Source: Escherichia coli (GTDB lineage: Bacteria > Pseudomonadota > Gammaproteobacteria > Enterobacterales > Enterobacteriaceae). Taken from it: a DNA stretch of 64,000 nucleotides. Positions 37,076 through 41,652 of the stretch are shown here, piece after piece (positions within the stretch are counted from its first letter, which is position 1; each line of letters begins with the position of its first letter). The stretch lies in the NCBI RefSeq assembly GCF_003334305.1, contig NZ_QOWS01000024.1, one strand, 5' to 3'. Position numbers and translations under genes: made by a program. A model generated the notes under the pieces. It ran no database searches and was not told the DNA's origin. It saw nothing but the letters and a program-made list of their open reading frames with translations.

Positions 37076-37088
37076 CGCACAGTCCATT

Positions 37089-37110
37089 CTTAATCAAATG
37101 ATTGATTAAG
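37089..37110. promoter_or_regulatory. Candidate TetR-type operator palindrome upstream of cecR
   Basis: CTTAATCAA-atga-TTGATTAAG, perfect 9-bp inverted repeat 14 bp upstream of cecR start codon. Confidence 0.45.
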
Positions 37111-37303
37111 ATTATGACTCCATATGGGAGTTGTCCAGTATGGCTAAGAATTTTAGCTACGCCAGTCACAGGGATAATTTATGCGCTGCGTCACAAAAAC
37201 TGCTACACTCCGCTCCCTCATGACATTGTGGTTTTTGTCATTTTCCTTTTCAGTATCTCCCTGAAAACTACACCGGTAACGGTCGGGGCGGTTCGGAGTA
37301 GTT

Positions 37304-38668
37304 ATGTCTTTCGATTCTTTGGGTTTAAGCCCTGATATCCTGCGCGCCGTTGCCGAGCAGGGTTACCGTGAACCCACCCCTATTCAGCAGCAGGCGATCC
37401 CTGCGGTGCTGGAAGGCCGCGACCTGATGGCTAGCGCCCAGACCGGTACCGGTAAAACAGCGGGCTTTACGCTGCCGCTGTTGCAACACCTGATCACTCG
37501 CCAGCCGCACGCCAAAGGGCGTCGTCCGGTACGTGCGCTCATTCTTACCCCGACCCGTGAACTGGCTGCGCAGATTGGCGAAAACGTCCGTGATTACAGC
37601 AAATATTTGAACATTCGTTCGCTGGTGGTGTTTGGCGGTGTCAGCATTAACCCGCAAATGATGAAGCTGCGCGGCGGCGTTGATGTTCTGGTGGCAACAC
37701 CGGGACGTTTGCTGGACCTGGAACATCAAAATGCAGTGAAGCTGGATCAGGTTGAAATCCTCGTCCTCGATGAAGCTGACCGCATGCTCGACATGGGCTT
37801 TATCCACGATATCCGTCGCGTGTTAACAAAACTGCCAGCGAAACGCCAGAACCTGCTGTTCTCTGCGACCTTCTCTGACGATATTAAAGCCCTGGCGGAA
37901 AAACTGTTGCACAACCCGCTGGAAATCGAAGTGGCACGCCGCAATACCGCGTCTGATCAGGTGACCCAGCACGTTCACTTTGTTGATAAGAAACGCAAAC
38001 GCGAATTGCTGTCGCACATGATTGGTAAAGGGAACTGGCAGCAGGTGCTGGTGTTTACCCGTACCAAACACGGCGCTAACCATCTGGCTGAGCAGCTCAA
38101 TAAAGATGGCATCCGTAGTGCGGCGATCCACGGGAATAAATCGCAAGGTGCGCGTACCCGTGCGCTGGCTGATTTTAAATCGGGTGACATTCGCGTACTG
38201 GTGGCGACCGATATCGCTGCGCGCGGTCTGGATATCGAAGAGTTGCCGCACGTCGTCAACTATGAACTGCCAAACGTACCGGAAGATTATGTCCACCGTA
38301 TCGGGCGTACCGGTCGTGCGGCTGCTACCGGTGAAGCGTTGTCGCTGGTGTGTGTTGATGAACACAAACTGCTGCGTGATATCGAAAAACTGCTGAAAAA
38401 AGAGATCCCGCGCATTGCGATTCCGGGCTATGAGCCGGACCCGTCAATCAAAGCCGAACCGATCCAGAACGGTCGCCAGCAACGTGGCGGCGGCGGTCGT
38501 GGGCAAGGTGGTGGTCGCGGTCAACAGCAACCACGCCGTGGGGAAGGTGGCGCAAAATCTGCAAGCGCGAAACCTGCAGAAAAACCGTCTCGCCGCCTCG
38601 GCGATGCCAAACCGGCAGGCGAACAACAACGTCGCCGCCGTCCGCGTAAACCTACCGCTGCGCAGTAA
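37304..38668 (+). CDS. rhlE: RhlE, DEAD-box ATP-dependent RNA helicase
   Basis: 454 aa; DEAD, SAT, Q-motif; R/G-rich basic C-terminal tail. Confidence 0.95.
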
Positions 38669-38674
38669 TCTTTT

Positions 38675-38819
<145 letters not shown>

Positions 38820-38899
38820 TTTCACAACAAGCACTTGTCAGCAATTTGAGAACACGGGAAAAAATTTATCTGTTTTACCGCCCATAAGCCACCGAGACG

Positions 38900-39382
38900 T
38901 TACTTCTCTATAGCCAATTGTTCGCGCAACTCCATTAAAAGGTAGCCCAGTCGATTCTTGCCCTTACCATTACCACCGTCTCCCCAGTAAGCATCGTTTT
39001 CCGTATGCTCAACCAGTTTTGCGGGCGCGGTTGCCAGCAAGAGCGCACGCAGTTCTGGATGCTGTTCGAATTTAGCGCGAAGTGCTTTTCGCATCACCTG
39101 TTCTTTGACCGACTCCCAGTTTTTACGCAGAGGCTTAGAACGATCGCGCCCCATGCGTGCGGCGACCATAGGGGAAGAAACCCGACGGATCTCTTCGCGG
39201 TATTTTTCATCAAGGAATTTTTGTGCCTGAAAATAGTGTTCTGAGGTGGGCCAGGTTTTCCCGTCAACCTTGATGGGCCAGGCGGCAAAGTTAGAAAAAT
39301 CACCGTAGTCATCGCTGGTGCTGTAGAAATTTATGATGGTGTCTTGCATGACGTGTTGGATCCTTTGTGCTCGAACGGGCAT
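38900..39382 (-). CDS. ybiA: YbiA, DUF1768-family N-glycosidase
   Basis: 160 aa ORF, divergent from dinG. Confidence 0.88.
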   Translation of the reverse strand: MPVRAQRIQHVMQDTIINFYSTSDDYGDFSNFAAWPIKVDGKTWPTSEHYFQAQKFLDEKYREEIRRVSSPMVAARMGRDRSKPLRKNWESVKEQVMRKALRAKFEQHPELRALLLATAPAKLVEHTENDAYWGDGGNGKGKNRLGYLLMELREQLAIEK

Positions 39383-39467
39383 TAAACCGCATTATGTTGG
39401 TGGTTATTGCGAGCCGCTTTCCAGAAACAGAAAAACCATTACCCCTGAAAACCGAAAAATGCCACAA

Positions 39468-39487
39468 TATTGGCTGTTTATACAGTA
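39468..39487. promoter_or_regulatory. LexA (SOS) box of dinG, non-canonical left half
   Basis: TATTGGCTGTTTATACAGTA 15 bp upstream of dinG ATG. Confidence 0.7.
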
Positions 39488-39501
39488 TTTCAGGTTTTCT
39501 C

Positions 39502-41652
39502 ATGGCATTAACCGCCGCGCTTAAAGCGCAAATTGCCGCCTGGTATAAGGCGCTTCAGGAACAGATCCCCGACTTTATTCCCCGTGCGCCGCAGCGGCAG
39601 ATGATTGCGGACGTCGCCAAAACGCTGGCCGGAGAAGAAGGGCGGCATCTGGCGATTGAAGCCCCCACCGGCGTTGGGAAAACGCTCTCCTATTTGATCC
39701 CCGGCATCGCCATTGCCCGCGAAGAGCAAAAAACGCTGGTGGTGAGTACCGCCAACGTGGCGTTGCAGGATCAGATTTACAGCAAAGATTTACCGCTGCT
39801 GAAAAAGATCATTCCCGATCTTAAATTCACTGCCGCTTTTGGGCGTGGGCGCTACGTTTGCCCGCGTAATCTGACGGCGCTCGCCAGCACTGAGCCCACG
39901 CAACAGGATCTGCTGGCGTTTCTTGACGACGAACTGACGCCAAATAATCAGGAAGAGCAAAAACGTTGTGCGAAGCTGAAGGGCGATCTCGACACTTATA
40001 AATGGGATGGTCTGCGCGATCATACTGATATCGCTATAGATGACGATCTCTGGCGTCGTTTAAGTACCGACAAAGCCAGCTGCCTCAACCGCAACTGTTA
40101 CTACTATCGTGAATGCCCGTTTTTTGTTGCTCGTCGGGAGATTCAGGAAGCGGAAGTGGTGGTGGCAAACCATGCGCTGGTGATGGCGGCGATGGAAAGC
40201 GAAGCCGTACTACCTGACCCGAAAAATCTGCTGCTGGTGCTGGACGAAGGTCATCACCTGCCAGATGTGGCCCGGGATGCGCTGGAGATGAGTGCCGAAA
40301 TCACCGCGCCCTGGTATCGACTACAGCTGGACTTGTTCACGAAACTGGTCGCTACCTGCATGGAGCAGTTTCGCCCGAAGACCATCCCACCGCTGGCGAT
40401 CCCTGAACGTTTGAATGCGCATTGTGAAGAGTTGTATGAGCTTATCGCCTCGTTAAACAACATTCTCAATCTCTACATGCCTGCCGGGCAGGAGGCAGAG
40501 CACCGTTTTGCGATGGGCGAACTGCCTGATGAAGTGCTGGAGATCTGCCAGCGGCTGGCAAAACTCACCGAGATGCTGCGTGGTCTGGCGGAGTTATTTC
40601 TTAACGATTTAAGTGAGAAAACCGGCAGCCACGATATTGTGCGTCTGCATCGGTTGATTTTGCAGATGAACCGCGCGTTGGGGATGTTCGAGGCGCAAAG
40701 CAAACTCTGGCGGCTGGCGTCTCTGGCGCAATCTTCCGGTGCGCCGGTGACCAAATGGGCGACGCGGGAAGAGCGCGAAGGGCAGCTGCATCTCTGGTTT
40801 CACTGCGTGGGGATACGTGTCAGCGATCAGCTGGAAAGGCTGCTGTGGCGCAGTATTCCGCACATTATTGTTACCTCCGCAACCTTGCGTTCGCTGAATA
40901 GTTTTTCGCGTTTGCAGGAGATGAGTGGTCTGAAAGAGAAAGCGGGCGACCGTTTTGTGGCGCTGGATTCCCCCTTTAACCACTGCGAACAGGGCAAAAT
41001 TGTTATTCCCCGGATGCGCGTTGAGCCTTCCATCGACAACGAAGAGCAGCATATTGCCGAAATGGCGGCCTTTTTCCGTAAGCAGGTGGAGAGCAAAAAA
41101 CATCTCGGTATGTTGGTACTGTTTGCCAGCGGACGGGCGATGCAGCGCTTTCTCGACTATGTGACGGATTTACGCCTGATGCTGCTGGTGCAGGGCGATC
41201 AGCCGCGTTATCGCTTAGTTGAACTGCACCGCAAACGCGTTGCCAACGGTGAGCGTAGTGTGCTGGTGGGCTTACAGTCATTTGCCGAAGGGCTTGATTT
41301 GAAAGGTGATCTGCTCAGCCAGGTGCATATCCACAAAATCGCTTTTCCGCCCATCGACAGCCCGGTGGTGATCACCGAAGGGGAATGGCTGAAAAGCCTC
41401 AACCGCTATCCGTTTGAGGTGCAAAGCCTGCCGAGCGCCTCGTTTAACCTGATTCAGCAGGTTGGGCGACTGATTCGAAGCCACGGTTGCTGGGGCGAAG
41501 TGGTTATCTACGACAAACGCTTGCTGACCAAAAATTATGGCAAGCGACTACTGGATGCATTACCGGTATTTCCGATAGAGCAACCGGAAGTCCCTGAAGG
41601 TATAGTTAAAAAGAAAGAAAAAACGAAATCCCCACGCCGTCGGCGGCGTTAA
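39502..41652 (+). CDS. dinG: DinG, ATP-dependent 5'-3' DNA helicase (Fe-S, XPD family)
   Basis: 716 aa from MALTAALKAQ; ORF track over-extended upstream; Walker A GVGKT, DEGHH. Confidence 0.93.
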   Translation: MALTAALKAQIAAWYKALQEQIPDFIPRAPQRQMIADVAKTLAGEEGRHLAIEAPTGVGKTLSYLIPGIAIAREEQKTLVVSTANVALQDQIYSKDLPLLKKIIPDLKFTAAFGRGRYVCPRNLTALASTEPTQQDLLAFLDDELTPNNQEEQKRCAKLKGDLDTYKWDGLRDHTDIAIDDDLWRRLSTDKASCLNRNCYYYRECPFFVARREIQEAEVVVANHALVMAAMESEAVLPDPKNLLLVLDEGHHLPDVARDALEMSAEITAPWYRLQLDLFTKLVATCMEQFRPKTIPPLAIPERLNAHCEELYELIASLNNILNLYMPAGQEAEHRFAMGELPDEVLEICQRLAKLTEMLRGLAELFLNDLSEKTGSHDIVRLHRLILQMNRALGMFEAQSKLWRLASLAQSSGAPVTKWATREEREGQLHLWFHCVGIRVSDQLERLLWRSIPHIIVTSATLRSLNSFSRLQEMSGLKEKAGDRFVALDSPFNHCEQGKIVIPRMRVEPSIDNEEQHIAEMAAFFRKQVESKKHLGMLVLFASGRAMQRFLDYVTDLRLMLLVQGDQPRYRLVELHRKRVANGERSVLVGLQSFAEGLDLKGDLLSQVHIHKIAFPPIDSPVVITEGEWLKSLNRYPFEVQSLPSASFNLIQQVGRLIRSHGCWGEVVIYDKRLLTKNYGKRLLDALPVFPIEQPEVPEGIVKKKEKTKSPRRRRR

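Follow-up and report, generated by a model that had tools for sequence, protein, structure and literature searches.

The rhlE locus and the limits of the helicase core

The window (the whole stretch of Escherichia coli DNA that was analysed, 64 kb in length) contains on its plus strand an open reading frame whose product is the DEAD-box RNA helicase RhlE, a well-studied protein of the E. coli chromosome. The frame is assigned to E. coli rhlE because its DNA is 100% identical to the annotated gene in many complete E. coli genomes, because its translation scores 981.6 bits against the NCBIfam RhlE equivalog model NF007882 (cutoff 743; residues 1-454 on model positions 1-456 of 456), and because the RefSeq gene order cecR - rhlE - ybiA - dinG is also that of the window. 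A search of E. coli genomes detected rhlE in 5424 of 5426; of 5428 matches to the gene, two are plasmid-borne, and a few genomes have a second copy. The gene and its helicase core are located as follows.

37304..38668, plus strand: rhlE open reading frame, 454 aa (open reading frame list)
37376..38320, plus strand: helicase core, made up of Pfam DEAD (residues 25-196) and Helicase_C (residues 232-339) (Pfam scan)
38666..38668, plus strand: TAA stop codon (open reading frame list and translation)

Both halves of the core are recognized with high significance (E-values of 5e-49 for DEAD and 4e-30 for Helicase_C), and the conserved DEAD-box motifs, including HRIGRTGR, are present in the translation and invariant in an alignment of 92 diverse sequences. 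Past residue 339, no significant Pfam domain was found with either the whole protein or residues 360-454 as the query; the best match for the latter, Pinin_SDK_N (E 2.7), was rejected as a chance hit. Sequence matches to DEAD-box structures in the PDB stop at residues ~360-380, no PDB chain was matched by the tail alone at E <= 10, and the best Foldseek matches of the modelled protein are the DEAD-box cores of DbpA, Vasa, eIF4A-III and DDX3X, with ~370-390 aligned columns. Of the NCBIfam models for RhlE1 and RhlE2, the former aligns to residues 1-382 and the latter to 1-446, and the tail alone scores 67.8 bits against NF007882, at model positions 380-456. The C-terminal tail of RhlE sits outside both RecA-like domains.

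The gene is flanked by several noncoding elements. A 216-nt intergenic region at 37088-37303 separates rhlE from the divergent cecR (ybiH, minus strand) and is presumed to house both promoters and the rhlE 5′ UTR. Seven nucleotides past the rhlE stop codon lies a 9-bp GC-rich hairpin (38675-38694; AUGCCGGGC UAU GCCCGGCAU) that has no U-run and looks like a 3′-end stabilising stem rather than a classical intrinsic terminator; a scan for plus-strand terminators found none after rhlE. A terminator-like match on the minus strand (38604-38590) lies inside the coding sequence and was dismissed, as such matches occur at chance frequency (1 found, 1.0 expected). Further downstream, the rhlE-ybiA intergenic sequence at 38720-38840 holds two REP-type palindromic units with an inverted repeat (38736-38749 and 38785-38798). 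Rfam assigns the REP-derived ES036/CssrF to 38742-38784 on the minus strand (43.3 bits, above gathering) and gives a match to naRNA4 at 38788-38823 that is below gathering; the 191-nt rhlE-ybiA region has a folding z of -4.6.

Composition, disorder and modules of the C-terminal tail

The earlier note had marked 38440-38668 as the tail of RhlE. The residues that it quoted are exactly those with which the translation ends, but the interval begins one base early: nucleotide 38440 still belongs to the D379 codon, as its third base, and the 75-residue tail, P380-Q454, corresponds to nucleotides 38441-38665. This tail consists of 20% G, 17.3% R, 13.3% Q, 12% A, 10.7% P and 8% K. Aromatic residues and Cys are wholly absent, and hydrophobic residues (ILVFMWYC) make up 4% (three residues), compared with 32% in the core. 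The tail carries a net charge of +14 and the 379-residue core one of +6; the Shannon entropy of the tail is 3.22 bits, against a minimum of 3.69 in the core (75-residue windows). For comparison, the 64 kb yielded 54 stop-to-stop segments of 200 aa or more, which together contain 15,865 windows of 75 residues; the R+G content of these windows averages 13.5% (sd 4.4) and their hydrophobic content 36% (sd 7.9). An R+G content of at least 35% or a hydrophobic content of at most 6% was found in only 11 of them, all over the RhlE tail. Because this is the sole such stretch among the 15,865 windows, the bias is not a matter of chance. The description of the tail as a basic, RG-rich extension beyond the helicase core is thus borne out by its composition, by its charge of +14 and by the Pfam and PDB matches, which end before it. 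Low complexity, which had been ascribed to the last ~75 residues as a whole, applies to most of them, but not to the first ~11 (380-390).

In a charge-hydropathy plot, the tail falls on the disordered side (H 0.305 versus a boundary of 0.480, net charge 0.187 per residue). An AlphaFold2 model was obtained with an alignment of 92 diverse sequences, drawn from 150 RhlE-like representatives at 50% clustering; a run on 31 close orthologues (>=85% identical), with a mean pLDDT of 43.4 throughout, was discarded in its favour. The retained model has a mean pLDDT of 87.8 and a pTM of 0.78, with values of 90-98 in the core. Averaged over blocks of 10 residues, pLDDT is 95 for 361-370, 97 for 371-380 and 88 for 381-390, and from 391 to the end is 53, 49, 43, 50, 46, 55 and 47, low pLDDT being a proxy for disorder only. 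DSSP assigns neither helix nor strand to the model after the helix at 351-364. Residues 391-454 have no confident fold and in this sense qualify as an IDR, whereas residues 380-390 (pLDDT 88-97) do not. The disorder prediction for which the earlier note had called therefore agrees in its two parts, charge-hydropathy and pLDDT (43-55 over 391-454), that the tail is disordered; because pLDDT drops only after ~390, the disordered portion covers ~64 of the 75 residues (391-454). Together with the preceding ordered segment, the tail can be divided into four modules.

38414..38473, plus strand: residues 371-390, ordered and conserved post-core segment, tail anchor (AlphaFold2, orthologue alignment)
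38474..38542, plus strand: residues 391-413, Arg/Gly/Gln module with one Pro; net charge +6, Tri-RG pattern
38543..38626, plus strand: residues 414-441, mixed-charge Ala/Lys/Pro/Glu module; net charge +2, two degenerate AKPA...RR units
38627..38665, plus strand: residues 442-454, conserved polybasic C-terminal motif; net charge +6, RRRRPRKP (442-449) followed by TAAQ

The last 11 residues of the anchor segment fall within the flagged interval; this part, residues 380-390, has a net charge of 0 and in the model appears to be packed on the core rather than free. The adjoining module at 391-413 has no acidic or hydrophobic residues. A direct DNA repeat (38579-38597 and 38621-38639, with 42-nt spacing) lies in the region of the AKPA..RR module. 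Tandem Repeats Finder did not pick up the GGGRGQ repeat, whose units are too short and, as DNA, too degenerate; the repeat shows only when proteins are compared. The terminal RRRRPRKP was also considered as a nuclear-localisation signal, and K. pneumoniae RhlE has been flagged by NLS predictors (PMC13311002); this reading was rejected, RhlE being a cytoplasmic helicase with no secretion signal and polybasic RNA-binding tails being routine triggers of such predictors.

Evolution of the tail and its likeness to other tails

The core has a median identity of 93.5% across 118 Enterobacteriaceae orthologues, the tail one of 50%. Their tails range from 68 to 131 aa in length, from +12 to +28 in charge, from 14 to 22% in R and from 13 to 36% in G, the extremes of length and of hydrophobic content coming from a few frameshifted database entries. 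The two ends of the tail are far less variable. An alignment of 31 Enterobacteriaceae orthologues shows no variation at P380, S381, I382, A384, E385, P386, I387, G390 and R391 and almost none at R445, P447 and R448, and the polybasic ending, or its variant PPRRPRKPxxAQ, is found in nearly all of 120 close orthologues. A motif resembling PGF/YEP...PEPI..GR reappears at the start of the extension in homologues that are only 55-65% identical. On a wider scale, 118 of 123 diverse full-length RhlE-like representatives carry an extension of positive charge beyond residue 370, with medians of 162 residues, +16 and 11% hydrophobic; three or more RG dipeptides occur in 49 of them.

Within the Enterobacteriaceae, tails differ in length by the copy number of their G/R/Q units and AKPAG..RR units; the latter occur in 3-6 copies in orthologues of Kosakonia, Franconibacter and Siccibacter, with up to six in Kosakonia. 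E. coli itself shows similar turnover. In 1713 E. coli genomes (about one third), the 321-nt stretch surrounding the tail falls at 90-95% identity, as against 20 genomes in this band for the whole rhlE gene. Five inspected E. coli alleles (L001-L005), with lengths of 448, 453, 454 and 455 aa, are all in frame. In the RG module (38474-38542), the 453-aa allele has lost one Gly (E2348/69-type), the 455-aa allele has gained one, and the 448-aa allele has lost G together with one GGGRGQ unit. Substitutions among the E. coli alleles cluster at residues 413-421. The best explanation of these patterns, judged from sequence comparison, would be that selection acts on the composition, the charge and the two end motifs of the tail rather than on its exact sequence, in which case length would drift by in-frame gain and loss of repeats.

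Several database entries for RhlE (P0026, P0040, P0053 and P0020, several of them of 500-545 aa) are frameshifted at or after the run of Gly codons at 38486-38497 (GGC GGC GGC GGT), and read the open +1 frame, as in the frame 38415..38726, past the stop codon into the REP region. These entries probably reflect errors of sequencing or assembly, or else rare slippage alleles, and make the range of tail lengths look wider than it is.

The tail is RG-rich and yet has no classical RGG box, because it contains a single RGG triplet. In the definitions of RGG/RG motifs that Thandapani et al. reportedly introduced in 2013, Di-/Tri-RGG and Tri-RG denote two or three repeats spaced 0-4 residues apart. 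By this measure, residues 394-406 form a Tri-RG (three RG dipeptides 0-4 residues apart), but neither a Di- nor a Tri-RGG occurs, the one RGG lying at 394-396. In the 118 orthologue tails, Di-RGG is found in three, Tri-RGG in none, Tri-RG in 20 and Di-RG in 70; the pattern is not strictly conserved. The tail shares with eukaryotic RGG/RG proteins (Dbp2, Ded1/DDX3X, DDX4, FUS and nucleolin) Arg-Gly dipeptides clustered in Gly-rich, disordered sequence next to a DEAD-box core, but differs from eukaryotic RGG boxes in having no aromatic (Tyr/Phe) stickers and only one RGG. PRMT-type arginine methyltransferases, the regulators of eukaryotic RGG boxes, are not known from E. coli. Eukaryotic RGG/RG regions, like the RhlE tail, have been linked to nonspecific RNA binding and phase separation (PMC9232405). 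As the tail has neither a PDB nor a Pfam match, its likeness to these regions is, at the level of sequence, one of convergent composition with no detectable homology.

Closer relatives are RhlE1 and RhlE2 of Pseudomonas aeruginosa, which are 51% and 43% identical, respectively, to E. coli RhlE (PMC8266600). As in the E. coli protein, their tails follow directly after RecA2 and are basic, poor in hydrophobic residues and fast-evolving (Hausmann et al., 2021, 2024; PMC8266600, PMC11260450). The two P. aeruginosa tails bind RNA independently of ATP, promote unwinding and drive the formation of RNA-dependent droplets. The RhlE1 tail is Lys-rich and that of RhlE2 is ~250 aa long with a Gly/Glu-rich stretch (PMC8266600), whereas the E. 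coli tail has 64 aa and combines the Arg/Gly/Gln module with AKPA..RR units and a polybasic end. Deletion of the tail leaves ATPase activity unchanged in both RhlE1 and RhlE2, but lowers RNA affinity 38- to 65-fold in RhlE1 and at least 7-fold in RhlE2, abolishes unwinding by RhlE1, reduces that by RhlE2 to 2.5% and prevents the formation of droplets; the isolated tails bind RNA and phase-separate, and the two tails can be swapped with no loss of RNA binding (PMC11260450). In addition, RhlE1(1-379) is of low solubility, in contrast to the stable RhlE1(1-392) (PMC11260450), in agreement with the ordered segment modelled at 371-390 of E. coli RhlE.

The E. coli paralogues RhlB (basic tail, 397-421), SrmB and CsdA/DeaD likewise have natively unstructured C-terminal extensions, which are positively charged and bind RNA without specificity (PMC7611231, PMC3814787, PMC1616957). 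The RhlB tail, which is required for RNA-stimulated ATPase activity and is bound by RraA (PMC7611231, PMC3814787), is much shorter (~25 aa) than that of RhlE, and the tail sequences are unrelated. RhlB also depends on RNase E for activity, whereas RhlE alone is the most active ATPase of the five (PMC3814787).

Proposed function of the tail and alternative readings

The tail of E. coli RhlE is most likely a disordered polycation that serves as an RNA tether and clustering module, a reading to which we assign a probability of roughly 0.8. According to this model, the protein chain would remain ordered up to ~390 and would then continue as a disordered polycation of ~64 residues (391-454, about +14) acting as a sequence-nonspecific, ATP-independent tether for RNA. 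The Arg/Gly module and the terminal RRRRPRKP cluster would contact the RNA backbone electrostatically, and the tethering may hold the RecA-like core near its substrate, which would raise the apparent affinity for RNA and improve the unwinding of duplexes. Because the tail is multivalent, RhlE and RNA would coalesce, as proposed, into salt-sensitive clusters (foci or condensates). In a secondary role, the surface of the tail may be contacted by partners that are acidic or bridged by RNA, for example RNase E, poly(A) polymerase or RraA.

Published work supports the suggestion of the earlier note that the tail is of the kind associated with RNA binding and condensates, both through foci of E. coli RhlE and through the truncations of P. 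aeruginosa RhlE1 and RhlE2 (PMC11260450). DeaD, SrmB and RhlE of E. coli are reported to form foci and to phase-separate (Hondele, 2019, as cited in PMC7414142, PMC9232405 and bioRxiv 10.64898/2026.03.23.713837), and the last of these describes the foci as seen on overexpression, which makes their physiological relevance uncertain. RhlE also co-localises with condensates marked by DeaD (PMC12758526). According to a survey of 2011, the C-termini of bacterial DEAD-box proteins are in general basic and rich in K/R (PMC3093544). RNA binding and clustering by the E. coli tail itself are inferred by extrapolation from RhlE1 and RhlE2, as a literature search yielded no experiment in which the E. coli RhlE tail was truncated or mutated.

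The conservation of the tail at its two ends bears on a different reading, in which the tail serves mainly for protein-protein docking, its end motifs being short linear motifs for RNase E, poly(A) polymerase I, RraA or a ribosome-assembly intermediate, with RNA binding incidental. The middle of the tail is far more variable than either end motif. Binding partners of RhlE include RNase E and poly(A) polymerase, both bound in vitro (PMC1616957), and RraA (PMC3814787), an acidic patch of which contacts the basic tail of RhlB (PMC3814787). The tail of P. aeruginosa RhlE2 is, moreover, necessary and sufficient for interaction with RNase E (PMC8266600, PMC11260450); however, this interaction is RNA-dependent (PMC8266600), and the RhlE1 and RhlE2 tails are interchangeable in RNA binding (PMC11260450). 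In E. coli RhlE, the motif at 380-390 is predicted to pack on the core, the polybasic end resembles a generic nucleic-acid binder, and no partner has been mapped to the tail. Docking as the main function is therefore unlikely. As an additional function, docking of partners (RNase E, PAP I or RraA) is plausible, and the invariant end motifs might belong to a specific partner site instead of serving general RNA binding. A quite unlikely extension of the tether model is that the tail is a tunable module, in which the copy number of the repeats would set the threshold of RNA-dependent clustering in each lineage and the end motifs, one of them packed on RecA2, would be specific and undescribed regulatory or partner elements; the range of copy numbers behind it is that of GGGRGQ within E. 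coli and of 1-6 AKPAG..RR units between genera.

The possibility that the tail is neutral low-complexity sequence, generated by replication slippage in GC-rich repeats and devoid of function, draws on its low identity (~50%) among close relatives, its spread of lengths (68-131 aa), the length alleles at the GGC/GGT run within E. coli, and the dispensability of rhlE in the laboratory (PMC1616957), where deletion of the gene from E. coli has no clear phenotype (PMC1616957). Slippage is, however, difficult to reconcile with the narrow ranges of charge, of R and G content and of hydrophobic scarcity across a large divergence, with a cationic extension kept in 118 of 123 diverse homologues, with the five inspected E. 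coli length alleles being in frame between nearly invariant end motifs, or with the strong measured effects of homologous tails (PMC11260450). Composition and charge that are kept while sequence and length are free to vary are what would be expected of a functional disordered region, and a neutral origin is very improbable. An overlapping gene in another frame of the tail region is more improbable still. Open frames at 38415..38726 (plus strand, 103 aa) and 38444..38716 (minus strand, 90 aa) do cross the tail, and the +1 frame stays open beyond the rhlE stop codon, but frames of this kind are to be expected in GC-rich, stop-poor DNA of low complexity. In databases, the +1-frame peptide turns up only as the frameshifted end of otherwise normal RhlE entries, namely the four noted above; a scan of 38400-39000 found no promoter-like site, rhlE is the sole RefSeq annotation here, and the length alleles keep the rhlE frame.

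What the earlier note proposed for the tail is correct in substance and already known from the literature: basic, disordered C-terminal extensions of bacterial DEAD-box proteins, including RhlE, have been reviewed since 2006 and directly tested since 2019-2024. The refinements added here are modest. They place the onset of disorder at ~391 rather than 380, divide the region into four modules (the anchor, the RG/Q module, the AKPA..RR repeats and the polybasic end), and describe turnover of the repeats that is in frame and keeps the charge. For the design of truncations of E. coli RhlE, they suggest a cut after about residue 390 rather than at 379.

A short polybasic tail (KKKEKTKSPRRRRR) is also present at the C-terminus of the neighbouring DNA helicase DinG, encoded by the frame at 39367..41652 (plus strand). 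The open reading frame list has dinG starting from a GTG that lies upstream of the RefSeq start, the latter being at about position 39502 of the window.
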